Below are positions 9,001-60,179 of a DNA stretch of 64,000 nt, piece after piece; position 1 is the first letter of the stretch; each line of letters opens with the position of its first letter. The stretch spans positions 2,542,001-2,606,000 of the forward strand of contig JAYWIR010000030.1 of assembly GCA_036172245.1 (NCBI GenBank). The letters are read 5' to 3'. Source of the stretch: Raillietiella orientalis. Lineage: Eukaryota. A program made the translations under genes and the position numbers. The notes beneath the pieces are model-generated. The model searched no databases. It was not told where the DNA came from and saw only the letters and a list, made by a program, of their open reading frames with translations.

Positions 9001-12000
9001 CGATTGCTGTATATTTGGTTCCGCGAATTCGCACGCAAATATTTGGTGCTTTCGGGCGATTGAGGGGGAACGCTTCGTCTCTGAGGCGGAGGGAACACTG
9101 TTGGCCGGAATCGGTTCTCTCTCTACCGCTGGCACGTTTTCCAGCTTCTCAGAGACCGGATTTCAAGACCATTGGAAGTAAAGCCGTCCTCGGAGTGTTT
9201 CGTGACCTTCGGCGAACGAGCTGCTGCCTCTCGCTGTCAAAATGGGAACTGGAGGAAGGAAAACACGGAAGGCTGTTGTGTTGGCTTCACACCGAAGCCG
9301 ACACGTTTCAGTTGACTACCGAGAGGAGGCGATTCGGAGCTTCCTCATCGAGAAGCGCATTGATCAGCAGTACGAATCCGCAATCAAGGAGCAAGGAAGA
9401 GAGAGGCTCTGTAATCAAAACGGCATACAGGAGAGCGTGCAGATCCCGGTCGTTGCAGTGTCAACAAAGGACGAGATCGGGAAAATGTTAGTCTACAGTA
9501 TGTAATTATGAAAAGGGCAAGAGAAACAGAGGAGATGAAGAACTCTACAGGAAGAACGGACACGGAGTACGGTCCATAATAGAGCAAAAAAATGACAGAC
9601 GTGAACTATTCTACTTTTCAGAATTAATCCAGTAAAGATGGTGTACTCTTGTGGCATCCGCTCGTCCTCGAGACAGGCGAGAGAGGAGGCTGTTTCGTAT
9701 CCATGCAAATTAGGCACGGAGATTACGCGATACTTATTATGGTCAGTTGAGGCCCTGTCATCACAGACCTGACCAGGCCAGCATTCGCACATTGGCAATT
9801 TAAAACTAGCCAAAGTCACACTCTTTTGCGAGTCTCGTCACACTCTGGGATCCCTGACTGGGCATGGCCACCAGATCGTCCAAGGCAAGGAACAGGTTTG
9901 AAAATACAGAGGCGACAAGCACATGTGACTTGTGTCAAGCACCACAGATGTGATTCTTCGGTGTGAGAACAAAGGTCACCGCTTGTCCCTCGAAGCTTAA
10001 TACGAAGGAAGTCCTCGTTTATGCCTTTCGTACTTTGAAAAGCTCTTGCAAGCATAATTTTTCTCTTGCAAGAAGCCCATTAACTGGAGGGCACGATTCG
10101 GAGCAACCGCATCTGGATGAATCGGCGTTCTTGCGACTTCCACCTGCCTTACCACTTGGAACAAGAGTTCCAGCACCATCGGATTTCGGATTTACCTCGA
10201 TCGATTGCGTACTCGGGCGCTTCGCTGCTTCCAATTCATCGACTTTTCCTCGAGCACTGATTTTTTCTCGTCGGTGAACCGTCTTGCGCAACGAAGGCCT
10301 CGATGGCAAATGTTTCTGCCTCAACCGAGCATCGCAAGAGAAGAAAGAAACCGCAGAGCCATCTACTTATGATTCCTGAGGTCTTGAGTACACGAGGACG
10401 AAAGAAATCTTCCAGCATCGGACATTCCCATACCATGGAGCCCATTTTGATCTCCCAACATCAGTAACGTTCATTCCACAAAAAAAAAAAAGGAAGAAGA
10501 AGAGGAAGGAATCGCAGCTGACCAGGTGGCAAACAATTCGCCACTTTGAGGCGGTCTTGCCCCAGATCTCGGCCATGTTCTCGAAAGCGGTTTCTCTCCA
10601 GCCAACATCTGAGAGGCGAACCCGCCGCAAGAGTCGGTGACAGCAGGGCTTACAGTCCCAGAATGAGATCCTCCTGCCCCCGGCAATCAGACTCTCATCT
10701 CCCAAGCGAAGAGTTCGATGCAATGGAACTCTCAGCCTCCGCGAGTCGCGGCTGGGAAATTCGGTCATGATGCCAACAGCTGAAGCGCTGCCTCCTGTTT
10801 TTCCCATCCGATTCTGCCTTGCGCTTTTCATGGCTCCCAACCCTCGCCTCCCGCGTTCGGGGCAAGGGGAAAGTTTCGTCACCTACTTGACGGCGTCTTC
10901 CGGGAGACATGCACGGAGACGCCCTTGGCACTCATGTGGCACACTGTCCCGGTTATTCGCTCGAAAATGCAGTACCGCACGAGGCACGTGAATCCGAGCA
11001 AAGCAGTCGCGGGGGCAAGGAAGAAAGGAGAGGGAGCGCGTGCTCAAGAGGCAGCAGAAAGAGAAAGTACTTACGAATTGTTGGTTGAACAGCTCGTTGC
11101 GGATGTACAAGGTCGATCCATCGGAAGCAGCCAGGAAGTTATCCGAAGAGATTTGAAAATCCGCAGAGAATTTGCTTTTCTCAGGAGAGCTGCCTGCGAT
11201 TTCTTCTTCCGATGTTATCAGTTTGGAAGGGGATGATGCGGTGCGGAAGTGGCTTGAGTAAATGCAAGACTTGGAGGCCACCTGGTGATCGTCCTCCGGC
11301 TCCGAATGGTACTCCATGGCAGTCATGTCGGGAACCGTCTTCTGACCGCCGTCCGACTCTCTGCATAGCCGGTCCGATCTGAGGCCACGCTCCTTCCGCG
11401 GCGGGAGAGCTCCTCCCGCAGAAACGGGGTCGTCCTCGCCACGGTTCGGGAAACCACGTCCCTGGTCTCCCGGGATGGCAACGAGGCCGCACCGCGAACG
11501 CCGGCAGCAAGGGCAGCTGCAGCCTGCCACCTGAAGGAAGTCGGGAGTCGAGCGCGCGAGCGGGCAGCAGGGTGGTGATGGAGCGTTCCCGTCGGGTGGA
11601 GTGGAAGGGACGGAGGCGTCCTGCTTCTGGGACGCCTGCAAGAGGTAGATGAGGGAGTTGGCAGGAAACCGCTTGGCTTCCTCGCTGCTCGTGCACGGCG
11701 CCTCCGCGTTCCCATCCACGGGTGAGACGGCGTATCCGGCGGCGGCTTCCCGGGCCAGGGAAACTCCTTCGGCCTCGGAGCTTTCCTTGCGGGCGAAGAA
11801 CTTGGAGTTCTTCCACTTCTCGTTCGACAGGCTGATCTGGAAGCCGCACGCCTTGGAGGGGAACGTCGGGTTCTTCGGGCATTTCTTCCGCATCGCGTAC
11901 TGGATGCCCTTCGCCGATTTGTGCTCTTTCGCCGAAGGTTCCTGTGAGCCCCAAGGCATCGTGACGCTCCTCCTGCTCTCGACACCGCATCCGGAGGAAG

Positions 12001-13006
12001 GGCATTCCTTGGGGGACGGTTCCCGGTAGAGGGCGAGGTCGCTGGCGTTCCTCTGGCTTAGGCTGTCGTGTGCACACGTCGCCAGCGCACTGCCGCTCCC
12101 TTTGATGGCTTTGCGCTTTTCCTTGCGGTTCCAAGTTCTTTCAAAGTAGGGAACTTTCTTCTTGAAGGCCGCCGCCGCAACTACTGCGACCTCCTGGAAT
12201 GGAAGGCTCTTGCCATCCGCTTCTGCAGTCAAGGAAGAGTAGATGTTTTCTGACGATCGGAAGTCGGGTAGCCTGCAGACAGAATCGGCTTGACGGAAGT
12301 CCGCCTCCGAGAAGGAGAAGGAACGCGACGCAGCCGCTGCGACCATGAGCTGGGGCGCTGCTGCCGTCGCGATCTCCGATCCTTCTTCCCTGACTCCAAC
12401 GCCGCCGCCGCCGTCTTCGTGGGGTGACGGTGAGCATTCGCTCGATCGTCTGGACCCAATCTTCTTTGGCACAGAGGTCAGAGCCACGCACTCGGCGGGT
12501 AGGTTCCGGGAGTGACCTCGCTTCCCCAGCCGAGAGCACTCCTTCTGATCGTCCTTGGGAACGTAGCACGCGCACTTGGAGACGTCACTCTTCAGGTTCT
12601 TAAACCGCGACGTCATCTCGCGCAGTCGGTCCAGGTTGAAGCTCCTCGTCTTCTTGCGGACTTCGACCCTCTTCTCCCGCGTCTCCTCGGAGAACCGCCT
12701 GTTGGACAGCTCCTCCTCCTCCCCTTCCTCTTCCGGGCCGTCCTTCGCTCGTCTTTTCAGGAGAGCGATGCTCGAGTCGCGGCCGCCACCGATCCCACGA
12801 TCCAACCCGTCCTCCGGGTCCGGGAGAGCTCGGATCTTCCGGCAGATGTCTTCGAACGCCTCGGAGATCTCTGCGTTCTTGACGACGCGGCACCTTGGCG
12901 GACCCTTGCAACTGTCCGAAGCACTTACGGTTGGAGATTCCCTGGGCGTGATGAACTCCTCCTCGTTGCTGTTCCTGATCTCCTCGGACGCCTCCGCGTC
13001 TGTCAT
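1..13006 (-). CDS. ARHGEF17: Rho guanine nucleotide exchange factor, ARHGEF17-like (DH + start of PH domain); multi-exon, 3' end outside the window
   Basis: GT-AG exons, all phase 0: 11075-13006 (large low-complexity N-terminal exon; linkage inferred), 3572-3649 (DIRSHVVRELLSTEKSYLESLEILVK), 3420-3497 (KYLNPMKNP...DDIFSQ), 1341-1445, 1170-1286, 944-1036 (LLIMPVQRIPRYELLLK), 1-251 (MLLKHTDPRHPDY...EIESMVDGLEDL...KDRC). The spliced product follows the ARHGEF17-type DH domain (PVQRIPRYELL, LLKHT) and DH-PH linker. Confidence 0.88.
1500..2750 (-). mobile_element. Highly decayed non-LTR retrotransposon RT remnant in a RhoGEF intron
   Basis: Eroded motifs IRKLSSRLLGTLAKGG (domain 1/2-like) and VSGKKSSSPWIMQGFP (GxPQG-like); frameshifted. 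Confidence 0.3.
3857..3879 (+). repeat. (AAC)n microsatellite
   Basis: About 7 perfect AAC units. Confidence 0.9.
4300..5400 (-). mobile_element. Decayed LINE 5' portion (gag-like zinc knuckles followed by APE start)
   Basis: Eroded knuckle-like GGKEH and SCQFCLRGLLA, then QINIPAAQE (APE QE motif). Confidence 0.3.
8640..9300 (-). mobile_element. Decayed RTE-like RT remnant
   Basis: PESTKYLRANSRNQIYSNR resembles PESQxGFRxxRxxxDQIF; VFDSIRR follows; many frameshifts. Confidence 0.35.
9600..10250 (+). mobile_element. Decayed RTE-clade APE endonuclease remnant
   Basis: Ordered eroded motifs FFGVRTKV (GDxNAKV), LKSSCKHNFSLA, and RIWMNRRSCDFHL (TWMHPRSKHWHL). Confidence 0.5.
11075..13006 (-). 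CDS. ARHGEF17: Large (644-codon) Ser/Glu/Ala-rich N-terminal exon, probably of the RhoGEF gene
   Basis: Lies in a 730-codon ORF with GC3-rich codons. ATG at 13004-13006; strong donor TTC|GTAAGT at 11075/11074 in phase 0, compatible with the DH exon starting at 3649. Possible acceptor near 13037. Confidence 0.7.
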
Positions 13007-14799
13007 GCTCCGGTAGCAGGCGCTCCGCGCGCGGAACTGAGTCCTGAGCGGACGGGGAAATGCGAACGGGTTCACGGAATTCAGGAGGCGAGGGAGAGGG
13101 CGTGGCTGTTCCGGGAGGGCAGGGAGAAGGGGGCGGGGTGACGGGGAAGGAGGGAAGGGACCCGATGCTCTTCACTGCCCGCAACTCATCTCGGAAGGCG
13201 ATCGCCTCGTCGTAAAAGGCACGACCACATGCGCGTCCATCCTCGATTGCTGTTGCTTCTCGTCCAGCACGAATGTGGGTCGCACACGGCAATAAATTTT
13301 TTTTCGTCTCCCCCGCCAGTCGGCGGCGAATGGGAAAAAAACAGGAACGAGACAAGATTTATCCCGAAACTCCCGACTCCCCGGCAGGTTTCACCAGGCT
13401 GTTCGAGCAGACTGCGTGCGCAGAGGCGTTCGTTTCGAAAAGTGCGCGGATTAAAAAAAGACACCAATGGGATGTGGGCTGCTCCACGGATAGCTGCAAG
13501 CACGCAAGGAAGGCTGCGGCGGCAGAGAGAGGAGCAGCACGAAATTCTTATTTTACCTTCAATTTTTATCTCCTTCTCCCCCTCCTCCTTCTTTTACTCC
13601 TTCGTCGGCAGAAGCAACGACACCATTCGAAAGTCTGCGTAAAGCCGAACGATATTTCATTTCACACTTTCGTTCCCGAAATAGAACCGCGGTGGATTTC
13701 CGTGCATTCGGCTGGGATTCGGGAAATTCGTTCACTCTGGATTTCGCCGCCTCTCCTTCACACCTTTCGTCCGTGGTTCGGTTTCGCCAAACGTGACGAG
13801 ACGAACTGCCTACGTCACGCTCGGGTTTGCATGGATGTCACTTCCAGGGAGGATGGCGGCGGAGCTCCCGGATCGAACGCGAAACGGTCGTTCCCGGTCC
13901 CATTCCCTTCCTCTCTCCTCCTATTCTCTTCACCCGGTGCTTTCTTGCACCCTACCTGCCTTCCTCCCGTATTGCAACACTTGAATGTCAGAAGCGGCTT
14001 CCCGATTTCGAGGAACGTAGTGCGTGTGCACACACCGAGGGGTTCACACACTGCATGCATCCGACATTTTGTTCTTGTTTTTTTCACAGAAATCCCGAGC
14101 AGCAATGGAAGAGGGGAACAGGATGTGACGAGCAGCAGCGATGCCTTTGCTGAAAATCTTACCGTATCAGAAAACCAAAAAAAAAGGAATATATAGCGTG
14201 ACGGAATACATAAATTTGAGGTAAGGTTATGTAATAAATATTTGAGGGAACCCCTCCCCCCCCCACATGTGTAGCCGTCTTACGTGAGGGCAAACTATAC
14301 GCCTGATGCAGGGAGAGACAATGCGGGAGGCAAACGTCATGGTGATTCCGACTTTCTCGCTCAAGTGATCGCGCCAAATCGACTCTCCGCGGCACGCGCT
14401 GGCGATGATTGCAGAGGAAATCGGTTGCCGGAAAAAAATGTTCCAGTTTCGATATCGTTCGGAAAATGACCGGTTGTTCTCTGGACCTCTAAGAACCCAC
14501 TCCCCCACTTCCCGGTTAAACAATTGGATTTCGATTGCAGGAACGCCCAAAACCAGTTTGATGCTCTTCCCAGGATGCGTTTACCCTGCTGTCAAATTTC
14601 ATCCGCAATTATCTTGTGAGAGGATAATTCTGCGAGTGCCCTGTAGCACTGCCAGGTCTACCAGACGGGAAGCACGGCGAAATGAATTGAGCCCCCGACT
14701 CCCTTCAAGGTGCGTTCTGCTTCTTTTCCATGACCTTGTTTGTCTTTCTGAGACGAGGAGGAGGACTGTTGATTATCAGGAAACGACAGCATCAGGCAT

Positions 14800-39231: not shown

Positions 39232-39269
39232 AAAACTCGCGGCTGATGGATCCATCAGCCGCGAGTTTT
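39232..39269. repeat. Perfect 38-bp spacerless palindrome
   Basis: AAAACTCGCGGCTGATGGA|TCCATCAGCCGCGAGTTTT. Confidence 0.95.
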
Positions 39270-39383
39270 ACATTTATTTACATTTATTTATTTATTTTTT
39301 ACATTTTTTACATTTATTTATTTATTTTTTACATTTTTTTACATTTATTTATTTATTTTTTACATTTTTTTACATTTATTTTT
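39267..39383 (+). repeat. T-rich tandem repeat (about 30-32 bp unit, about 3 copies, built from TACATTT/ATTT)
   Basis: TACATTTATTTATTTATTTTTTACATTTTT recurs directly. Confidence 0.9.
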
Positions 39384-40289
39384 CATCTTCCTGGTGACAT
39401 TTTCAAACTAAGAGTGACTTTTAATGTGTGACCAGTCTTGACCAGCCTCTCAATTTTCCCCACAGCGATTTGCTAAGTGATGGCTGCAGAGGAAGAGGAT
39501 AGCACAGACTGCGGAAGGCCATGATACCTGGAAGGAAGGAAGACCACCCAGTTTGCAATAAGAAAGGATGCTGATGGTGAGATCCATCTCTGCTCTTTGC
39601 TGTCAGAGGCAGCTGAGTGTGCAGAAGGCACGTGATACCTTGCAATTATTTTTCACTAAAGGGAATGCTGACTAGCTGCAACTTTCCTGCAAGCTTCCGG
39701 AACTTACAGAACATGACAACAAAACTGTGTGGGTCATGAGTGAAGGTATGAACTTTAGAAAAAGGCATGATTTTATATAGGAAAGGAACTATAACCACAG
39801 GAAATGCCTTTTCTAGACTCGCTGACGCCAGGTCTTCATATGTCTGCTAATTTGTACAACACCTTAATGGATACGAATGCAACAATAGTGCTTAACAATG
39901 CAATGAAAGAAAGGATGGAATATAATAGAGACCACATTTCTTGCTATGTTGCCTATCTAAAATTCTAATCCTAAAGCATCGCATTTACTGCTGAAGTGAT
40001 GCAAAAACGGAATGATCTTACCATTTGAATCAAGTGGCTTTAAACGAGAAACTTCTTCCTTGTTCTCAATTATGTCTTTCTTTATTTTCTTCCTTATTCT
40101 CACTCTGTTGGAAATTGTATTCGCAGTTATCTTTTTCATTCTCTGCGAGAATCCATTTCAAAATATATCTACCTGAATCCTGCTCCAGGACACATGTAAA
40201 GTACATTTCCTTCTTCTTGGACTCTGCTAGACGTTCCAAAACTTCCCATTCCACAAACTTCGATTTTACACACTCAAAAGCTCCTTCAC

Positions 40290-47070: not shown

Positions 47071-47543
47071 CACACCCCGGTGCTCTGGGGCATTTATTAT
47101 AAAAATAAACAAACATGTATAGGGTCATCGGCCCTACAACGTCCGAAAGAGTTCGGAACCTGCCGAGCAACCGGCACGCAGGCCGGCGAGGTTCGCCTAG
47201 GCAGCGGAGGGGGAAGGGACAAACAAAAACAAAAACAATATGTACAAAAAAGAATGTGTGTGTGGGGGGGGGGGGGTAAGGGATCATTGTCCTCTGGAGG
47301 GCGTCCTCTGCATCATTTCCAAGATGCCGGCAAATTCCATCCGAGTATGCTCCAGGTGGGACCATCTGGCTGCCGTCCTCAGGAAGCGCAGGATGAAGCA
47401 GGTGCCGTCCCTTTCGTGCCGTCCCTTTCGTGCCGTCTTTCTCTTGCCTATCTCCAGGTCGCCGCAATCCCACGTAGGCAGCACAGAGCTGCTAGGGCTG
47501 TAGCAGGCGAAAGGGCATCGGGCACGAAGAGGCGCTTCAACAC
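47071..47543 (-). mobile_element. Older 3' fragment of the same L1/Tx1-like family
   Basis: VLKRLFVPDALSPATALAALCCLRGI...LRFLRTAARWSHL plus 3' UTR and terminal AATAAATGCCCCAGAGCACCGGGGTG; contains a 14-bp tandem repeat (GTGCCGTCCCTTTC, 47402-47441). Confidence 0.85.
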
Positions 47544-49773
47544 GCCGGGGCGTTTATTTTTCTGGTAAAAACAAACAAGCAACTGTAGGGCTATTGCCCC
47601 TACAGCGTCCTAAAAAATGTTCTAATAAAGAGTCTGAAATTGCCGAGTAGCAAGCACGCAGGCTGGCGAGTTCGACTCGGCAGCGGGAGGGGAAAGGACA
47701 AATAAAAACAAAAAGAAAACACTATTTACAAAAGCAGGGAGGAGTTGGGGAAAGGATCACATTCCGCTGGAGTCGTCCTCTACATCCTTTCCAGGATGCC
47801 GGCAAGTTCGGTCCGCATATGCCCCAAATGGGACCATCTGGCTGCCGTCCTTAGGAAACGTAGGGCGGAGCAGATGATGTCCCTGTCGTTCAGTCCACCA
47901 GTGGCGGTGCTCCAGGCCGCCACAATCCCTCGTAGGCAGCAGAGGGCTGCAAGGGTTGCTGCAGGCCGAAGGGCGTCACGCACAGAGGCGCGTCAGAACG
48001 TCTCTAGGGTTGATCGTGGGTGCTCCTAGGGCCGTTGCGAAACGCAACCACAGAGGCCGGAGGGCAACACAGTCAAGAAGCAGGTGCGGGAGGGTTTCCC
48101 GTTCCCCGCACCTGACGCAATTTGGGTCCACAGCCCCCCTCGTCCAGTGCGAACGGCGGGCGTTGCTGGGGAGTCCCCAGTGCAACACCAGGAACGCCGA
48201 CTCCTGCCACTTCAGGGTAAGGGCCCGGGTAGTCTTCAGCACCGGGGGCCACTCGAGTACATCCATGGGGATGCTCAGCAGCTCGCCCCAGCGCAATAGT
48301 CCCTTTGGTGGGCACTTGGGGTCGCAGCGTCTGTCAACTGGCCCGTGGTCCAACCACCTTGCTCTCTCTCTCTTCCAGAGATACTGCACCTGACTTCCCA
48401 TTTCGCCGGCTGGCTACTGCCCAGTTGCTCCCTGAGGTGGAACAGAGCCGTGGCAAGGGAGGTCCTCTCAGCCCATGCGCTCAAGGTGGGCTGCACAATG
48501 ATGTCCTGCAGCGAGCGGCTCTTGTGATAGGAGAGCAGCATTCGCTGCCGCAACTCCGGGCTCGCTTCCTCGATCTGGGCCCACGTGCGAAGGCTTTCCT
48601 GCAACCAGGAAGTACCGTTCGCGGGCCGACAGGAGATCCAGGTGTTCGTTCTGGTCAGCTTCGCCACTCGCCGAAGTGCCAGTCCGCAGTGGAACAGGTA
48701 CCGGCGTTAGCGGCGCGCTAGGAAGGTAGACAGTCCCGCGCAGCCGCTAGCTCGCTGAACAAGGCGTCGTGCAGGCTCGCACCAGCTGGTGCTCCATAGC
48801 TTCGCTACTAGAGCTAGAGTCCTGAACTGCAGCTGCAGTTCCAGCCGCTCCAGCGTGAGGAGGCCGAGGCCTCCATCGCGACCAGGGGCACATAAGTCCT
48901 TCAAACGGACTCGGGGCCTCCCTCTGCCCCAAAGGGCGATTCTGAGGAGGTCCTTTGTCCGCTTTCTGACACCGCAGGGTGGAGGGCAAACAAAAAGCAA
49001 GGGGCGAAAAAGGGGGGCCACGAACGTGTCCCACACCACGGCCCGTTCCGGCAAGAAAAACTTGCCATCCAGGAACGGGCCGATCGCTCTCTCGGCCTTT
49101 TGGAGGCAGCTAGACCACGCTTCCGCAGGGGAATAGTTTCCCAACGGCACACCAAGGTACTTAAAGTACGGTACCGTGGGGATCCCCAAGCTAGAGCAAT
49201 CCGGCTGCCCTGCCCGTGATGAACCAGCTGCAACCTCGGATGACTTCGCTCTGTTCACCTCCAGCCCTGTCCCGCGACGCAGCAGCTCGAAAAAGTTTTC
49301 GACCGCCGACGCCGGGGTGGACATGGGGAGCAGCAGCAAAAGATCGTCCGCATAAGACGCCACGGCCGGTGTACCTGGGCACACGCGCGGCAGGCGACCA
49401 AGAGTCTCCCTGTATGCCCTCAGCACCAGCTCGAAGTAGGTGCTGAAAAGCAAGGGGCTCAAGCTGTCACCTTGCCGTATCCCGCGGCGCACCGGCACAC
49501 CGAACACGTTTCTTCCTCTGAAAGAAATATTGGTCAGCGCGTCGCGCCAGCAAGAGCACAGAAAGGCTAATAAGGAGGCCGGGAAGCCCAGGCGCTCCAT
49601 TAGCTCCAGCAGGAGCTCTTGGTCGAATGCTTTACGCAAATCGACCGCGACCGCGAGGCCCCCCTCGCGCTCCCGACCATCTCGCGAACCACCAGCGGAC
49701 GTCCCGCAACTCGGGGTGACGACCTTATTCTTTTCATCTACTCTACACCGCTAAAACTCAAACCAGGTGTTCG
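47544..49773 (-). mobile_element. Left arm of the palindrome: inverted copy of the L1/Tx1-like element (RT to 3' end)
   Basis: Reverse complement of 50030-52259 (coordinates sum to 99803); identical ORF translations. Confidence 0.95.
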
Positions 49774-52259
49774 GAAGGAGGCGGGAACGTCGCCCGCGAT
49801 GCAGGCGACGTTCCCGCCTCCTTCCGATTGGCACGGATGCGTCTTCTCCCGAAGGGAGGAGACTTACGGAACCTCAGCAATTGGCGTCCGATCACCGTTT
49901 CAAACGCGGTCGCCAAGCTGCTTGCGAAGCTATGGTCGGAACGAATGGGGCGGATGGCGGAAAGCTTCATCAGCACGGAACAGACATACGCTGTTCCCGG
50001 GCGAAGCATGGACGCCAACCTGCTCTTCGCGAACACCTGGTTTGAGTTTTAGCGGTGTAGAGTAGATGAAAAGAATAAGGTCGTCACCCCGAGTTGCGGG
50101 ACGTCCGCTGGTGGTTCGCGAGATGGTCGGGAGCGCGAGGGGGGCCTCGCGGTCGCGGTCGATTTGCGTAAAGCATTCGACCAAGAGCTCCTGCTGGAGC
50201 TAATGGAGCGCCTGGGCTTCCCGGCCTCCTTATTAGCCTTTCTGTGCTCTTGCTGGCGCGACGCGCTGACCAATATTTCTTTCAGAGGAAGAAACGTGTT
50301 CGGTGTGCCGGTGCGCCGCGGGATACGGCAAGGTGACAGCTTGAGCCCCTTGCTTTTCAGCACCTACTTCGAGCTGGTGCTGAGGGCATACAGGGAGACT
50401 CTTGGTCGCCTGCCGCGCGTGTGCCCAGGTACACCGGCCGTGGCGTCTTATGCGGACGATCTTTTGCTGCTGCTCCCCATGTCCACCCCGGCGTCGGCGG
50501 TCGAAAACTTTTTCGAGCTGCTGCGTCGCGGGACAGGGCTGGAGGTGAACAGAGCGAAGTCATCCGAGGTTGCAGCTGGTTCATCACGGGCAGGGCAGCC
50601 GGATTGCTCTAGCTTGGGGATCCCCACGGTACCGTACTTTAAGTACCTTGGTGTGCCGTTGGGAAACTATTCCCCTGCGGAAGCGTGGTCTAGCTGCCTC
50701 CAAAAGGCCGAGAGAGCGATCGGCCCGTTCCTGGATGGCAAGTTTTTCTTGCCGGAACGGGCCGTGGTGTGGGACACGTTCGTGGCCCCCCTTTTTCGCC
50801 CCTTGCTTTTTGTTTGCCCTCCACCCTGCGGTGTCAGAAAGCGGACAAAGGACCTCCTCAGAATCGCCCTTTGGGGCAGAGGGAGGCCCCGAGTCCGTTT
50901 GAAGGACTTATGTGCCCCTGGTCGCGATGGAGGCCTCGGCCTCCTCACGCTGGAGCGGCTGGAACTGCAGCTGCAGTTCAGGACTCTAGCTCTAGTAGCG
51001 AAGCTATGGAGCACCAGCTGGTGCGAGCCTGCACGACGCCTTGTTCAGCGAGCTAGCGGCTGCGCGGGACTGTCTACCTTCCTAGCGCGCCGCTAACGCC
51101 GGTACCTGTTCCACTGCGGACTGGCACTTCGGCGAGTGGCGAAGCTGACCAGAACGAACACCTGGATCTCCTGTCGGCCCGCGAACGGTACTTCCTGGTT
51201 GCAGGAAAGCCTTCGCACGTGGGCCCAGATCGAGGAAGCGAGCCCGGAGTTGCGGCAGCGAATGCTGCTCTCCTATCACAAGAGCCGCTCGCTGCAGGAC
51301 ATCATTGTGCAGCCCACCTTGAGCGCATGGGCTGAGAGGACCTCCCTTGCCACGGCTCTGTTCCACCTCAGGGAGCAACTGGGCAGTAGCCAGCCGGCGA
51401 AATGGGAAGTCAGGTGCAGTATCTCTGGAAGAGAGAGAGAGCAAGGTGGTTGGACCACGGGCCAGTTGACAGACGCTGCGACCCCAAGTGCCCACCAAAG
51501 GGACTATTGCGCTGGGGCGAGCTGCTGAGCATCCCCATGGATGTACTCGAGTGGCCCCCGGTGCTGAAGACTACCCGGGCCCTTACCCTGAAGTGGCAGG
51601 AGTCGGCGTTCCTGGTGTTGCACTGGGGACTCCCCAGCAACGCCCGCCGTTCGCACTGGACGAGGGGGGCTGTGGACCCAAATTGCGTCAGGTGCGGGGA
51701 ACGGGAAACCCTCCCGCACCTGCTTCTTGACTGTGTTGCCCTCCGGCCTCTGTGGTTGCGTTTCGCAACGGCCCTAGGAGCACCCACGATCAACCCTAGA
51801 GACGTTCTGACGCGCCTCTGTGCGTGACGCCCTTCGGCCTGCAGCAACCCTTGCAGCCCTCTGCTGCCTACGAGGGATTGTGGCGGCCTGGAGCACCGCC
51901 ACTGGTGGACTGAACGACAGGGACATCATCTGCTCCGCCCTACGTTTCCTAAGGACGGCAGCCAGATGGTCCCATTTGGGGCATATGCGGACCGAACTTG
52001 CCGGCATCCTGGAAAGGATGTAGAGGACGACTCCAGCGGAATGTGATTCTTTCCCCAACTCCTCCCTGCTTTTGTAAATAGTGTTTTCTTTTTGTTTTTA
52101 TTTGTCCTTTCCCCTCCCGCTGCCGAGTCGAACTCGCCAGCCTGCGTGCTTGCTACTCGGCAATTTCAGACTCTTTATTAGAACATTTTTTAGGACGCTG
52201 TAGGGGCAATAGCCCTACAGTTGCTTGTTTGTTTTTACCAGAAAAATAAACGCCCCGGC
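47544..52259. repeat. 4716-bp inverted repeat (2230-bp arms, 256-bp spacer)
   Basis: Mirror-image ORF track. Only one mismatch noticed (47755 G vs 52048 T). Confidence 0.95.
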
Positions 52260-52276
52260 TCACCCGGGTGTAAAAA
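49795..52276 (+). mobile_element. 5'-truncated L1/Tx1-clade non-LTR retrotransposon (RT, CCHC finger, 3' UTR, short A tail)
   Basis: LLPKGGDLRNLSNWRPI, QTYAVPGRS, DLRKAFD, GIRQGDSLSPLLF, YADD (50449-50460), FKYLGV, GGLGL and CVRCGERETLPHLLLDC. Stops at 50050-50052, 51094-51096 and 52021-52023, plus frameshifts. Confidence 0.95.
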
Positions 52277-54049
52277 CAAGAAATGGACTCTTTTTGAATG
52301 GACTTCTAGAATGGACTCTTTTTTGATGCAAATAAATGCCACGGCATATCCGGATGATAAACCATTATTATAGGAGGCTGACTGTTATGCCTCATAAATC
52401 GTGTACTTCAGTCATCTGACCAGCACCAGCAGAAAATGAGGAGGCGAAGAAGCCTCATTATACCGCAAACTCCCACCGACAGCAATCACTGTGATTATGA
52501 TTACCAAGACTTGCTTCTGCTTGAAATTTCTGGTTCCTTGTTTGCACTGGAATTCGCTTGTTACGGCCAAGAGAACGCTGCTCTGCGCAAGTACTTGGGA
52601 CCAAAGTTAAGATGGCAATAATTTGCAGAAAAATGTTGGCCTTACCCGTGAGCGAAGTTTGCAGTACTCCTCTTCATACATTCAAGTTTCTGGTCCAAAG
52701 TCATTTGATGACCTTCGATTTCTTTCTGCATTTTCATTCGTGAGACACCTTAGACGATGCTGAAAAACAGTGAGGTTAGCGCTTAGAGATTTCCAGTCCG
52801 AGCATCCAAGTCCTCGAACTGTTTGCAATGACTTGAAGCTGGAACTTTAGAGTGACTTGAGCTGTGAGATTTCGAGGAGTTCATTGCTGCCTGCGAGCAT
52901 TAACTTCAGCAAATAATCAGATTCAAATTCAGAAACCACCTCTGACGTGTTATTATGAAGAATTTTCCGCCACCACTGCTTCTAATGGGAAGTCTTAGTC
53001 CGTTCGCCGGACTGAAGGCAAGAAAAGGATTTCAACAGCTCCCTCATGCGCCCACAACCTGCGGAAATTCCAGCAAAGGTCGTGATGCTGCTGCAAAGCG
53101 TATTGTAAACAAATTGTATAAATTCTAAAGAATCCAAGTGTTTTCGTGAACTTTTATGAAGTCCGCAACATTGATCGCATGGGGTGACGATCGCGTAACG
53201 TCTGCACTGCTTTGCTTAGTGTCTCTGAGACAGCGTCGTGATAGTCAACTGCTCCACTCATAGCTTTACTAAACTGCTCAGATGCTCAGCCTGGCTTCAC
53301 TCCTGAGATTTCCTGTTAGGATGCAGGCCTATGAAAATGCATTTCATACGTGAAGGACATCACTTGTTGTAGAAACCATTCCCGAGATGAAATGAAGCTT
53401 TGTTTGTGTCGAAGTTCTATCCCTCTAGAAGAGGTCGATTGCTGCGAAAAGATAAAAGGAAAATATCGATGTTGATGCTTCATCCACGTCTATGTCTCCA
53501 CGATGCTTAGCTTTCTGTAGAGGTGGCGAATCGGTCACCGGAAGGAAACGATCTTCGTTCTCTGGGTACATATCTTTCCTATGATGGTTGATACCGCGCG
53601 ATGGAATGAAGCGTCGTGTAACCAATTTAGCTTAAACAAATGCCCGCGTTGGTCGTATAACCGCGGCACCTCCTGAGTCGCGGATTCCAACACCCGAATT
53701 TGATGCACCTTGGGTTTGGAGACCATCCGCGAGATGACGCTGAGGTGGCCCATGCCTCGCGTGTGCCTCGGTAGGGTCAGATGCCCCGTTAACTAGTCGG
53801 AAACTAGGAATTAACCCTTTGGGGTTCATCCTGGTAAGTGCAGGAGTGGTTCCTACGGTGAACTCGCTTCACGTGTGCTTCAAGTGAGTGGCAACGGGAG
53901 AACCTTGTGAGTCCCCATGAGGTAGCGTTGTGGATATGCTTCCGTAGCGGTAAGGTGACGGTGCTTGACACTTCATGAACTAAAAAAAACGGAAAGTTAC
54001 CTGGTTTCGAGGTCTTAATTGTGACCAAGAACCAGGAAAGTATTTCTGA

Positions 54050-57000
54050 GAAGCAGCACGTGTAGTGCTTTGCTGGTAGTTACCGTCACCGCCATTTGTT
54101 CAATGTCGCTTTTGGTCAGCGTCAGCTGCTTTGGAAGGCGTCAGCGTTGCGAATGGAGTACTCAGAGGAAGGACCATCCACCTCCATGCCCATGGATTTA
54201 GGCAAGCCAGGTTCCTCTAAGGAAGGTGCCTTGATGGGACCAATGGGGTCTCGACGCAGCCATTGTCCTATGCGGCGGTCGAGAAACACGCAGTAAGGTT
54301 TGCGGTGTTTAAAGTCGGCAATGAAGAGGAGCCAGTCAGGAAGTTCGACCAAGATGTAAAGCAGGTCACCTTTAAAACAGGAATACTACGTCTTGAGGAT
54401 GTGTGAGACCTGGATGTAGCTTTTCATAAGCTGACATTAATTTCAATAAGATAAAGGCAATTGTCTCCTCGGCAACGGGGTTTACGGTGTATATCTCTGA
54501 TGAGGAGTTCCAAGAATTCATGACTGAGCAAGGAATCACGATAAACGCATAGTTGCGAGGGCTCGGTGAGCTGACCAACACGGCGGTCTATCTCACCGGT
54601 ATACACTGCAAAACAACAAAAAGAAAGATATGGGAATTCTTTTCCCAATATGGAGAAGTACAGGAGGCTGCTTTCCGAAACCATATGTAAGAAATATTTG
54701 CAGAAGCAAGGGTGAAAGTAAAGCTGTTTGTCGATGCCAAGCGTCATAGACATCGATCAACACTCACAGCATGTTAGAGTACGGTATAGATTGCAACCAA
54801 CTTGCTGTGCAGGTTGAAAGGAGTTTGGGCACAGAGTGGGTGTCTGCTCCAAAGCAAAATGTTTTAAATACGGGCAGATTGGTCATTTCATTAAAGAAGG
54901 TAATAGACCTCCACAATGGAAGGACACCTAAAAAGGGAGTACGTAAAATACTTCGACTGGTTGGTGTCTAGAGGACTATCAGCTTTGCCAGAGGTGAAGT
55001 AAAGGAGGAAGAGGAAAGCGGAACAGCAATGGGAGGTTCCATGTACTCCTGTGGCAGAAGAAGAGCCTCTGCAAAAACAGAACCAACAGAAGAAACCTCA
55101 ACAACTGAAGAAGCAACAGGTGACGGTAGGAGAACTTTCTATTCCTACAGTAGAGAAGAAACAGGAATGCCTCGCTGACTGAAACTGAAAAACAGAAAGC
55201 CTCAGAGTATTTGCAGGAAGTGGCAATGCTCGCGGGAAAGATCTGTCCCAACAACACGGAGGTGGAACGCGCAAATACGCACTATGCCGGGCCGAGCTGC
55301 AGAACGAAATCCAAAAATTCCTGGTTGACGAAAAGCTAAGGTACAAAATGGAGGAAAAAATAGGTGAAGTAAAATTGAAGATCTGTGAACAAGATTGCTA
55401 GCAAGGAAAATGACAAGAGCAGCATACCAACTTCAAGAAAAGGAAAAGTAGAAACCAGCGAATCAGAAAGTGAAGCAGGGGAAAGACTATGGTTCAAAAG
55501 GAAAATAGTCAATTCTCCCAAACAAAAGGGAAAGAACAGAAGAGGAACGTAGAGACCAATGGCCTCTTTCCTGTAGTCTGCTAGGAGCATCAAAGTTGTT
55601 TCCTGGAACGTAAAGGGGTTGTGGAGCCAGCAAAAACGTAGGCTGGTCATGGGCGAATGATCGAACATGACCACATCGTCTGCCTGCAAGAAACCCACGA
55701 TTCCGTGCACCAGGTCATCCAGGAGCTCGAGAGACGATTGGATGTCCAGCTGTTCCTGAGCGCGGGACAAAAGACCAAAAGCGTAGCGATCCTCGTGAAA
55801 AACGAGATCGCACACACTGTATTGGAAACCTTCGCTCTGTGGCCAGAATGAATTGTCGGAGTATGTATGTCCTGGTCCACAAACGTTCACCTGTTTCTTG
55901 TGAACGTGTACGGGCCGCACCGTGGCAAATATCACTGTGCAGAAGCCGTGCAGTCCCTGCTGAGTAGCAAAGTCAAGGCAAAGGACATCGTAATAGTCAT
56001 AGGAGATTTGAATATGCTGAACACCATCATTCAGTCTAAGGATGCCCGAGGAAGAAAGGCCTATCGGCGGCTGTCCAACGAGTTCGGACTGCAGTGGCTC
56101 ACGGTGGGTCGCAAACCGATAGACCATGTCCTATACAGCCGGGACATCGCGAATCGTATGCAAGGCTTCGAAGACATCTTATCCGTGCTCTCCTTTGACA
56201 CTCTTGAGGATGTACCGGCTCTCTTACTGTTGCCAGTATTTCGAGAGCGAGAGATCTTAGATGTTAAGCTCCCGGTACGCCTCCATTTCTCTCTTCCTGC
56301 CGCCAAACTTCAGGCTGCTAAACAGATGTATAGTATGCTTCAACCTGTCCCAGTCTGCGACTCTGAGGATGGTAGCGTCCCGCAGTATCCGTCCCAATAA
56401 GTTCCTTGTGACAGGGATGCGTCTCAAACCAGGTGGGCATGCAGATGAATACAGCTCCCGCTCCTGCCCTCCTCCGAGGGTTTTCGGTTCTCAACGTGAA
56501 TCGAACCAAGGGTTGATCCGAGAGGTAGAAGTTGGAGAAGATCAACATCGCCACTGATGTCTTCTGTATCCTGTACGAAGACCAGGTTCAACACACATCG
56601 GAAAGAATTGCAGAGGCCTTCTACCACCATTATGCCACACACTTCCGATGAGAGGATCTGTGCCCGACGGAACAAGCAAATATCTTGCAGTATTTAAACC
56701 CAAGGGTTAAAGGTTAACACCAGGAAAAACTTCAGGAAGTCATTTCTATTAAAGAAGTGAAAAACGCCTTCCTGGGGCTGCGCAAGGATGTGGCGGCAGG
56801 TCCTGATAGTGTTCCAATCACGCACTATGAGCGCTATCCGCACGACTACATGCGTTTGTTCCACGAGTTAACGCTAGCTATTCACAAGGGAGGAAAACTT
56901 GCGACATTCCAAGAGGGAAGGATCGAGCTGATGCGAAAAGGAGACGACATAACGGAAGTCATCCAATGGCAGTCTGTCTCCATCCTAAATACGGATGCCA

Positions 57001-59184
57001 AGTAGTTGGCAAAGATCTGGGCCAACCGCTTGAGCATGGCGATGCCATCGGTAGTTTCTCCTATGCAGACGTGCGCAGTGCCCGGATGCTGCATGTGTGT
57101 GAACGTAAAGTGTGCCCGGGCCACCATAGGCTATTTTTGATAGGTCGGCGAAAACCTGGTGCTGAGCTTCACTGATATGGAGAAAACCTTTGATACTGCG
57201 GACCAAGGGATGCTTCTGAAGATCTTGAGGAAACTAGGCTCCCCAAGTTACTTCATTCAATGCGTGGAAAAACACTCGAGAAGCAACAAGTAAGGATTTT
57301 CATCAACGGACTACAAACAAAAGCAATTCGAATGGAAAGGAGTTCGCCAAGGCGATGCCCTCAGCCCGATACTGTTCGTACTATACATATAGGCAGTGTC
57401 AGCACTAGTCAATGAGAACAACCGTTTTCAAGGAATTACTATCGATGACCAGAGGCTAACTAACCTGGCATACGCAGACGATCTGCTGCTCTTCCTGAAG
57501 CATGAGAGGGATCAGCGTGCGTTCCTAGGTGTAGTTAGGCGTATGCAGAGAGGACTGGGCTTAAAAATCAATGTCCGAAAGAGTCATCTAATGCCTATCG
57601 GAATCCTGGACCGCTCCGTTCCGACAAAGGCGGGATTCCGAGTAGCGGAAGATGTAAAGTAACTACGTATCCACCTTGGCGATCCGAATGCATCCCAAAA
57701 GTTGTGGAAAGAAATCCTATGGAAAACTCAAGAAAAAGCTAACAAGTACACTCGAGTCGACTTCAATATGCAACGGAGGGCCACCTTGTGGAATGGCGTT
57801 CTACTTCCCCAAGTCTCTACGGAGCCGCCTTCTGCAGGATCGATAAGAAAACTCGAGTGGAAATTGCAAGTATACAAAGGAGAATTTTATGGAAGGAATA
57901 AAGGCCGAGGGTCAGGCTCAAACTGTTGTGCCGCCCTCGAGAAGAAGGTGGAAGTGGGATGAAACTGCTAGAACAATCAGTGGAATCCATGGATGCGCGG
58001 CAACTCCTGGGACACACCACGAACTGGGCGGAAATGCGTTCCGCAGCACACAGAGCCTACTCGAGGCTGTTGAATAAGAGACCTGATGGCTGCGTTGATA
58101 GGTGCCAGCGGAGAGTGGGTGAACATCGACCTCAAAGCGGAAACAGGAACTGGTGAGAATTCACCAATTCAAGATCGTTCCCAGAAGCAAAGAAGTATGG
58201 GAAGAAGAGCTGGCTTTGGTGATACCTCATTTGGTAACCATCCCAAGGAACACTGCAAAGTGGCTTCATCAGTGACCAAGGCTAAAGAAAGAGCAGTGCG
58301 AACTGCTCACCACAAGTGGGAATCGCCACCATATGCGACTGTATCGCTTGACCACAGGCATAAAAAGAAAGTTTAATCATCGAACACGGCAGCTTTGGAA
58401 ACAGGTGCCGCAACAAGCGTGGATGCTGATGACTAAAACCAATATCAAAAAAGTAACGTTAAAGAAATACCAGGATAACGATGTCCTCGATGCAGCTTCG
58501 AGCCGCTACGGACTTACGCACGCAAATGTGCTGGCCGTAGGGACTCACTCATGTGGAGTGACCTTTCCCCGAACACTCAGGACAACTTCCTTTTGTTACA
58601 CAACGGAGGAATTCTGAGTAGTTTCAGAGTGCGACACTGGGCCGGGAACATCCAGCAAGGATTCTGCAAGGCGTGTGGAGTGGAAGAAAAGCAGCTCCAA
58701 GTGTTCACCTGCCCCACATTGCGAACCGATTGGCAAGCGGTGAAGGCGGTGACCTGCCTGCGGGAAAAGAGGAAAATGGAAACTTGGATGGAATTGTTTT
58801 TCTGTACAAGCTCTCCATCACAGCTATTGTGAGCAAAGATGTATACATCCGGAAGACAGAGCGAAGCGAAAACAGAAGAACCCAAAAGAATTTCTATCCG
58901 GAAGAAGAGCACCAGAATGGGGGATTTTAAATGGTCTATTAAAGAAAGAAATCAGGATCAGGAACTGTGAAACAATCCCATCTTGGACGTATCACCACAT
59001 TCTCCGGAAGATGGATGAATACACCCAGGCAGGAGGGACAAACCCCAGCACACCCTAATGGAAAGCAGAAAGACAGAAAAGTGAAGTAATAGTTGAAAAA
59101 TCTATGTAATCATAAAAGACTGATTTGTAAAAGTTGTTTTGAATAAACTCATCCCTCTGCTGGTCGGACTGGGGAACTCAAAAA
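54050..59184 (+). mobile_element. Near-full-length decayed L1/Tx1-clade element (ORF1 RRM-like; ORF2 APE-RT-zinc finger)
   Basis: ORF1 VYLTGIHCK...WEFFSQYGEV. ORF2 from ATG 55559: VSWNVKG, CLQETH, NVYGP, IGDLN, IDHVL, AGPDS, WQSVSILNTDAK, RQGDALSPILF, AYADD, GLKINVRKS, REEGG, CKACG. AATAAA at 59142 and an A-run near 59180. Confidence 0.9.
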
Positions 59185-60174
59185 CGGAAAGTTCTTCGCG
59201 AACCTCTGAACGAAGGAAACATCTCGAAATACGTTGATGCTGCCGGCAGCGTCTGCACTCCGTGCGTGGCGTCTCCAGCTGCTGCAGCGCTGCATCCTGG
59301 GAATCAAGTGTTCCCCGTGCTGGAATCAGATCTTGAGATGTTGGAATCACAGAAATGATGAGAGTTTCACCCAGATGTTTTCGATGCTTTCCTGTTTCAT
59401 TCCGCTTGAATCCAACCCCGAAGTGTCTTCCCGGATCTGTTCCCTCTAAAAAAGGGAGAACACTTATGTGCATGGAAAGATGAAGTTTACTGATCGATTC
59501 GGCTTGTATTGAAGACATGCTCTAAATGACCCGCGTTACCCTTGGTAACTGCTGGCACTTGGTAACCTTCCCCCACTTAATATGTATCGAGTGTATTGCT
59601 TCCCCCCTCATGTGGGATCGACTCTCGTCTATCCTAAACATTCCGGTGGGCGACCCTAGAAACATTTTTCATCGCCTCCTGATGCAGGAAACCCTGCCAG
59701 CCGCCGCATGTGTTGCAGTTCTCTGCTGCATACGCGGGATCCTGGATAAGTGGACCGCGTCAAGGAGAGGCCGCAGCAGTCGGAATGCCATCCACTGGGC
59801 AGTCATCTCTATGGAGAAGGCTTCCCGTTGGCGCCGGCTAAGAAAAATTCTGCCGGCGCATGCAAAACTTGTTCGCATCCAAAACCGGATGCAGAGGCCC
59901 CCTCACGGCGTACCCTTCCCTTCCCTCCCTTCCCCATAAAACATTGTCCCCCCAGGTATTTTTTTTTTTTTTTGGTTTTTTCTTTCTGGTTTTCCCGCCC
60001 CCCTCCCCAGTGGAGAGGACTTTACCAGCCTGCGGATCGGTAAGGACAGGTACCCCAAGACAGTCAGAACGATGTGTTCTGACTGAAAAATAACTGGATG
60101 TAACAAGACTGTTATGAAATTTTTCTCTGTGAAAATTTTAATAATAAAATCCCTGGCTTACCCGGGTGAAAAAA
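59185..60174 (+). mobile_element. 3' part of another L1/Tx1-like element (same group as the palindromic element)
   Basis: TFPHLICIEC...DPRNIFHRL...AVLCCIRGILDKW...KASRWRRL; terminal AATAAAATCCCTGGCTTACCCGGGTGAAAAAA. Confidence 0.8.
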
Positions 60175-60179
60175 CTGCT

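Follow-up and report, generated by a model that had tools for sequence, protein, structure and literature searches.

A 4.7-kb palindrome of L1-like retrotransposon sequence in Raillietiella orientalis, consistent with snap-back of first-strand complementary DNA

An inverted duplication confined to one retrotransposon

We analysed a 64,000-nt stretch of the Raillietiella orientalis genome (GenBank assembly GCA_036172245.1, contig JAYWIR010000030.1, forward-strand positions 2,542,001 to 2,606,000; hereafter the window, in whose own coordinates all positions are given), which contains a palindrome of about 4.7 kb made of a probable L1-like retrotransposon present in both orientations. An inverted-repeat search of the window placed the two arms at 47544–49780 and 50023–52259, and base-by-base comparison refined them to 47544–49773 and 50030–52259, 2230 nt each, with a single mismatch in the 2230 positions (G at 47755 against the complement of 52048), reproducing the arms and the one difference described in an earlier note on this DNA. 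The inner limits were set at 49773 and 50030 because three of the next seven positions inward are mismatched, after which the symmetry is gone. No other inverted repeat of at least 60 nt occurs in the 64 kb except for a related 123-nt pair. The window contains no N, the central region included, and no adapter-like insert was found at the palindrome centre.

The symmetry does not reach beyond the element. Extension of the palindrome into the outer flanks was considered and rejected, as gapped local alignment of the 200 nt on each side gave a score of 14, below the mean obtained with shuffled sequences (15.5, standard deviation (sd) 2.3, maximum 28); the statement that no flanking DNA is duplicated is thus upheld.

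The centre had been described as a spacer. It proved not to be foreign DNA: the sequence found there belongs to the element and carries on from the right arm without a break. This 256-nt spacer lies in frame with the reverse transcriptase (RT) of the right copy and is 80% identical to residues 107–191 of P0001, the closest protein relative that we found (619 amino acids, an uninterrupted open reading frame (ORF), 78% identity). Because the spacer continues the RT frame and maintains this match, we take the right copy, which is unbroken from 49795 rightwards, to be the primary one. To the left of position 49795, the likeness to P0001, the single comparator, ends, and the sequence turns back on itself: 49771–49794 is a perfect 24-nt reverse complement of 49804–49827 around the 9-nt loop 49795–49803, inside which two further pairs would shrink the loop to 3 nt. 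Folded as single-stranded DNA, this central hairpin has a predicted energy of −39.4 kcal/mol (z −10.6), and none of 200 shuffled sequences was equally stable. The family probably did not possess the inverted 24-nt piece originally, as P0001, again one comparator, reads otherwise upstream of the residues R-E-T.

Read in the sense direction, the left copy follows 49804–49827 and then jumps to 50030, omitting 202 nt (49828–50029), with the trinucleotide CGA preceding both breakpoints of the skip. The left side of the palindrome is a backwards copy of the right copy, beginning 9 nt from its 5' end and containing one internal skip; the copied-back stretch amounts to 2254 nt within a right copy of 2483 nt and stops 12–18 nt from the 3' end.

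The two outer ends are unequal. Alignment with two other family copies in the window (47072, minus strand; 60142, plus strand) showed that the family terminus, which three independent copies define, runs 12–18 nt beyond 52259. This extension comprises ...TCACCCGGGTG and probably AAAAAC and ends at about 52271–52277. A complete family 3' terminus is found on the right copy only, while the left arm diverges immediately after ...CCCCGGC and is followed by an older related copy (47072–47543). A possible 4-nt continuation at the left end, GTGT after an 8-nt gap, is indistinguishable from the sequence of that old copy. The claim that both outer ends coincide with the element's 3' terminus therefore stands for the right copy, which reaches about 52277, and falls for the left arm, which stops 12–18 nt short. 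The old copy also serves to polarise the one arm-to-arm difference: since it agrees with the left arm, the change at 52048 is carried by the right arm.

The terminal 28-mer of the right copy matches at three further places in the window, with 22 of 28 positions at 47072 (minus strand), 22 of 28 at 60142 (plus strand, in a second element described below) and 21 of 28 at 52330 (plus strand), and matches at that level were absent from 100 shuffles of the window. A 14-nt motif, which was composed after inspecting these copies, occurs four times against an expectation of 0.18. The register of the terminal stem-loop also folds in the old copy and in the element near 60 kb, with a weak z in each, and does not fold in the fragment at 52330. 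Features and coordinates are collected in Table 1.

Table 1. Features of the palindrome and of related sequences, in window coordinates
Feature	Position	Strand	Description
Older related 3' fragment	47072..47543	-	70.8% over 459 nt (47100-47539); same orientation as left arm; 5' truncation abuts the palindrome
Left arm	47544..49773	-	Backwards copy of 50030-52259; lacks the element's last 12-18 nt; 1 mismatch in 2230
24-nt snap-back piece	49771..49794	-	Shares 3 nt (TCG) with the left arm's inner end; microhomology junction
9-nt turn-around loop	49795..49803	+	Element-coded, R-D-A against R-E-T in P0001; 5' end of right copy
Unique part of right copy ('spacer')	49804..50029	+	N-terminal RT motifs; 80% to P0001 residues 107-191
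Right arm	50030..52259	+	RT core, putative C-terminal zinc-knuckle region and 3' untranslated region (UTR) of the 5'-truncated element
Single arm-to-arm difference	52048 (partner 47755)	+	In the 3' UTR; left arm equals old copy here
Terminal stem-loop of the family	52250..52271	+	-11.5 kcal/mol, z -2.6; palindrome edge 52259/52260 lies in its 4-nt loop
Last 12-18 nt of right copy	52260..52277	+	3' half of stem-loop plus AAAAAC; outside the palindrome
Short terminus-like fragment	52330..52365	+	About 50 nt downstream of right copy; 21/28 match; no stem-loop fold
Second L1-like element, heavily decayed	56700-60175	+	RT 56700-58114, 27% identity to P0001; no ORF above about 140 amino acids

Identity and state of the element

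The plus-strand ORF of the right arm matched the Pfam family RVT_1 with an E-value of 2.7e-12, and a zf-RVT match (E 1.7e-4; 22.6 bits, below the Pfam cut-off of 27.5 bits) lies downstream of the RT in another reading frame. Apart from P0001, the remaining 10 of the 11 matches in each of two protein searches had at most 39% identity. Several of these distant relatives are plant L1-type proteins combining an APE endonuclease with RVT_1 and zf-RVT (PF03372 + PF00078 + PF13966), and identity to named L1-type proteins is just 25–28%. We therefore relied on P0001 for classification. Compared with solved structures, P0001 matched human LINE-1 ORF2p best (E 7e-40 to 5e-39), far ahead of R2 proteins (7e-17 or weaker), and because of this ranking, sequence comparison supports an L1-like non-LTR retrotransposon (one lacking long terminal repeats) as the source of the palindrome. 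The L1/Tx1 label proposed earlier accordingly holds in its L1-like part.

Its RT being closest to L1 ORF2p and followed by a putative zinc-knuckle region, the element resembles L1 and the plant L1-type long interspersed nuclear elements (LINEs); unlike these, it ends in a conserved stem-loop followed by AAAAAC, and neither an A tract nor a poly(A) tail is present at its 3' end. Many L1-clade and 'stringent' LINEs likewise have no poly(A).

Judged by its alignment to P0001, the copy is 5'-truncated at 49795: it starts at about residue 105 of P0001, and the endonuclease, ORF1 and everything upstream are missing. What remains is also damaged. Relative to P0001, two stop codons interrupt the frame, three codons are missing from the RT, and one or more frameshifts precede the putative zinc-knuckle region. 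As all of these lesions fall within the arms, they are common to both. A variant genetic code is an unlikely cause of the stops, given that the ORF of P0001 is uninterrupted and that the window copy is frameshifted as well.

P0001 was the one close relative found by the protein searches. A metagenome scan with the RT of the window matched 169 stretches, none of which was a relative; the same scan with P0001 returned seven loci at 22–61% identity over short segments, none of them close, and a scan of genome contigs gave one distant locus (26% identity). A scan of IMG/VR viral contigs with P0001 flagged one stretch as encoding a relative and returned no loci.

Proposed cDNA snap-back and competing origins

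On balance, we think that the palindrome arose in a single retrotransposition of a 5'-truncated L1-like element whose first-strand complementary DNA (cDNA) snapped back on itself. Reverse transcription would have been primed at a nick on the right-hand side of the target, on the 3' stem-loop end of the element RNA (about 52277), and the cDNA would have been extended leftwards to 49795. Its free 3' end could then have folded back through 2–3 nt of pairing with a loop of 3–9 nt, so that the cDNA would serve as its own template, for either the element's RT or a host enzyme: 49804–49827 would be copied, 202 nt would be skipped at the CGA microhomology and 50030–52259 would be copied. The skip may represent a slip on the template or, equally, a deletion that came later, away from the centre, and made a near-perfect palindrome more stable. 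Long palindromes can undergo central rearrangement. Copying would have halted in the loop of the terminal hairpin, 12–18 nt short of the start of the cDNA; the copied-back end would have been joined, with no homology, to the upstream target DNA, that is, to the older related copy; and second-strand synthesis would have opened the hairpin into a linear palindrome of 4.7 kb. The anatomy is read directly from the DNA, and it is from the anatomy that we infer the order of these events, the polymerase that copied back and the cause of the halt.

Several features of the locus are those that snap-back would leave. The element's own reverse complement starts at the 5' end of the right copy, with a 24-nt stem and a 9-nt loop (or a 3-nt loop with two more pairs), and the upstream DNA is fused to antisense element, the right copy alone reaching about 52277. 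A complete terminus on the right copy only is expected, because in snap-back just that end is target-primed, and the copied-back stretch is bounded at both ends because the limits of the cDNA account for both (9 nt at one end, 12–18 nt at the other). The flanks differ and are not mutual inverted copies, which we likewise count in favour of snap-back. Taken together, the turn-around at the 5' end, the element-derived spacer, the one-sided terminus and the duplication of 2254 of 2483 nt are best fitted by this mechanism. In the earlier note, a truncated cDNA was proposed to have folded back, to have acted as its own primer and to have been copied from end to end; folding back and self-priming are retained here as the best fit, and copying over the whole length is not, since the left arm lacks 202 nt near the turn as well as the last 12–18 nt.

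Snap-back is itself already known. It is a named class of 5' junction among R2-protein insertions in human cells, in which the upstream junction leads into antisense insert, and internal gaps occur, some with microhomology (PMC11371274 and PMC11331408). The process described there for R2-protein insertions (PRINT) resembles the one proposed here, in that, ahead of 5'-junction formation, a complementary strand is started on the cDNA from the cDNA's own 3' end, and in that upstream target is fused to antisense insert with gaps of the same kind. It differs in that PRINT insertions are engineered R2 insertions (restriction-like endonuclease clade) into ribosomal DNA in cultured cells and are seen as junction reads, whereas the palindrome belongs to an L1-like element, occurs naturally, seems to be fixed and has a copied-back stretch of 2254 nt out of 2483. 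For L1 itself, ORF2p is reported to be efficient at extending short hairpins, to accept DNA as a template and to switch from one template to another (PMC10830420).

Comparable folding has been invoked at L1 insertion sites. Self-annealing over 2 bp of homology is the explanation given for inverted duplications associated with L1 (bioRxiv 10.1101/2024.12.14.628481): like the palindrome, these foldbacks would start from a single-stranded 3' end that self-anneals into a small hairpin of about 2 bp, with synthesis at the break made by target-primed reverse transcription. Unlike the palindrome, they duplicate adjacent genomic DNA or produce a chromosome-scale foldback, whereas at our locus the duplication is limited to the cDNA of the element itself, with an intact chromosome to either side.

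Twin priming of L1, reportedly described by Ostertag and Kazazian in 2001, also leaves an inverted segment on the 5' side of a LINE insertion and also acts during integration. It inverts the 5' part of the element with at most a short overlap, whereas the palindrome is an inverted duplication of the 3' part; 2230 nt are present in both orientations, in place of the non-overlapping segments of classic twin priming, and the turn-around with its 24-bp stem and 9-nt loop marks self-priming rather than internal priming by the second target strand. The proposed distinction, that twin priming inverts without duplicating, is therefore sound as regards the 2230 nt duplicated here and too strict as regards twin priming, for which insertions with duplications at the inversion breakpoint are on record (PMC12350158, legend of Extended Data Fig. 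5).

Several observations weigh against a snap-back during integration. The strongest is that the two stops, the 3-codon deletion and the frameshift or frameshifts (at least one) are common to both arms, yet the arms differ at only 1 of 2230 positions. Since the lesions are shared, the template must already have been defective; decay at this site after insertion would have made the arms diverge, so that a dead template acting in trans, gene conversion or a later duplication at the DNA level has to be invoked. RNA from a dead copy mobilised in trans is plausible and would fit a family recognised by its 3' stem-loop. Shared lesions are equally what one expects of an old resident copy that was duplicated later. 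Further, no target-site duplication was detected, as no 5-mer or longer word is shared between the 60 nt of left flank and the 81 nt of right flank; the copy-back stops before the start of the cDNA without a demonstrated reason; and the case for a single event is drawn from the anatomy.

A fold-back of chromosomal DNA after insertion we regard as unlikely. Here a break or a replication stall near 49795 in a decayed copy would release a resected 3' tail that self-anneals at a tiny inverted repeat, host polymerase would fill in, and the product would be joined to the other end of the break with loss of the intervening DNA. An old copy duplicated recently would show just the combination of shared stops and frameshift with a 1-in-2230 difference, and the missing target-site duplication is neutral to favourable for such an origin. 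Precedents exist: resected-end self-annealing is the model put forward for the L1-associated inverted duplications in the preprint cited above (bioRxiv 10.1101/2024.12.14.628481), and inverted duplications with 1–15 bp of microhomology are common in human long-read data, with a median of 284 bp (PMC12350158). Against this origin, the length at our locus lies far beyond the typical size of such events, the loop and the arms contain no DNA from outside the element, and it would take a coincidence, the only one that this origin needs, for the fill-in to end within 12–18 nt of the element terminus after some 2.46 kb; we put its chance at about 1 in 100 (an estimate, not a computed value).

Less probable still is an artefact of library or assembly, whether a snap-back chimera made during amplification, a read folded back on itself or two separate copies wrongly joined. 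Snap-back chimeras formed in vitro share the tiny loop and the microhomology, and a duplicated read would yield near-identical arms; a fold-back read or molecule would, however, have duplicated the flank too, and the flanks here are unrelated. The three distinct junctions, the asymmetric 202-nt gap, the one difference between the arms and the stop at the element boundary also speak against an artefact, as does a centre that has neither N nor adapter-like insert.

Two separate primings, on both strands of one break near the 3' end of the RNA (an extreme form of twin priming), or two head-to-head insertions of one young subfamily, seem to us very improbable. In their favour, the last bases of the left flank, ...ACAC, are complementary to GUGU, the sequence closing the terminal stem-loop, and could in principle have primed there, and four family 3' ends in 5.3 kb, in the order (-)(-)(+)(+), suggest an insertion hot spot. 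Against them, the 3' half of the terminal hairpin is absent from the left arm, priming at GUGU needs an unexplained 8-nt skip, both 5' ends would need to fall within 9 nt of each other and leave no target DNA in between, and twin priming as usually defined copies non-overlapping parts of the RNA whereas 2230 nt overlap here.

If cDNA snap-back is correct, the locus bears on how LINE insertions are finished, as second-strand synthesis and completion of the 5' junction continue to be debated. Until now, snap-back products have been known mostly from junction reads in engineered systems or tumours, and our full-text literature search, which is no proof of absence, did not bring to light any account of a natural snap-back palindrome of kilobase size for an L1-clade element. 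A fixed natural copy would mean that snap-back intermediates can resolve into a stable, heritable structure, and here the turn-around, the skip inside the copy and the two outer junctions are all preserved to the single base. The locus would also illustrate one single-step route to long inverted repeats of retrotransposons, loci of a kind that can give rise to hairpin RNA. As the earlier note suggested, this one might yield such a hairpin RNA, a possible siRNA source, and might be a fragile site. Its value is limited by its being one locus and by the mechanism not being new. A much bolder proposal, to which we give little credence, is that self-primed copy-back of whole cDNAs recurs in this family and leaves heritable kilobase-scale hairpin loci, stabilised by off-centre microhomology deletion and yielding double-stranded RNA that feeds silencing of the family; were copy-back recurrent in this way, the locus would be a natural record of second-strand synthesis by a LINE RT in vivo.

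Related fragments and the surrounding window

The palindrome lies among other remnants of its family. Four family 3' ends occur within 5.3 kb (47072, 47544, 52244 and 52330), in the order (-)(-)(+)(+), the older two lying on either side of the young palindrome; such clustering may reflect an insertion hot spot, a preferred site or self-targeting. We considered whether the old copy and the 52330 fragment could be the arms of an earlier palindrome and rejected this, as their alignment score of 29 lies within the range of shuffled sequences (mean 22.7, sd 3.2, maximum 33). The 52330 fragment may represent a very short truncated copy or a non-autonomous partner. It is the last part of a segment, 52282–52365 on the plus strand, in which about three copies of a 13–15-nt repeat (AATGGACTCTTTTTG) precede the terminus match. 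The old copy has a repeat of its own, a 14-nt unit present 2.6 times (47402–47437), and a G-run that is absent from the young copy.

Further downstream, the second, heavily decayed L1-like element closes with AATAAA...CCNGGCTNACCCGGGTG-AAAAAC at 60142–60175 (plus strand), a stem-loop terminus as in the palindromic element. As it ends in the same terminus, two distant families have a common 3' end.

Elsewhere, ten long ORFs of the window gave no Pfam match, and a search of the whole window against Rfam gave nothing at the gathering threshold. One ORF of 761 codons, on the minus strand at 10883–13168 in a GC-rich region, belongs to no Pfam family and had no homologue among 8000 scored candidates. 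An AT-rich minisatellite with TTTTACATTTATTTA-like units spaced 8–13 nt apart occupies 39266–39397, within a block of 33–35% GC at 36–40 kb, to be compared with about 60% GC in the retroelement.

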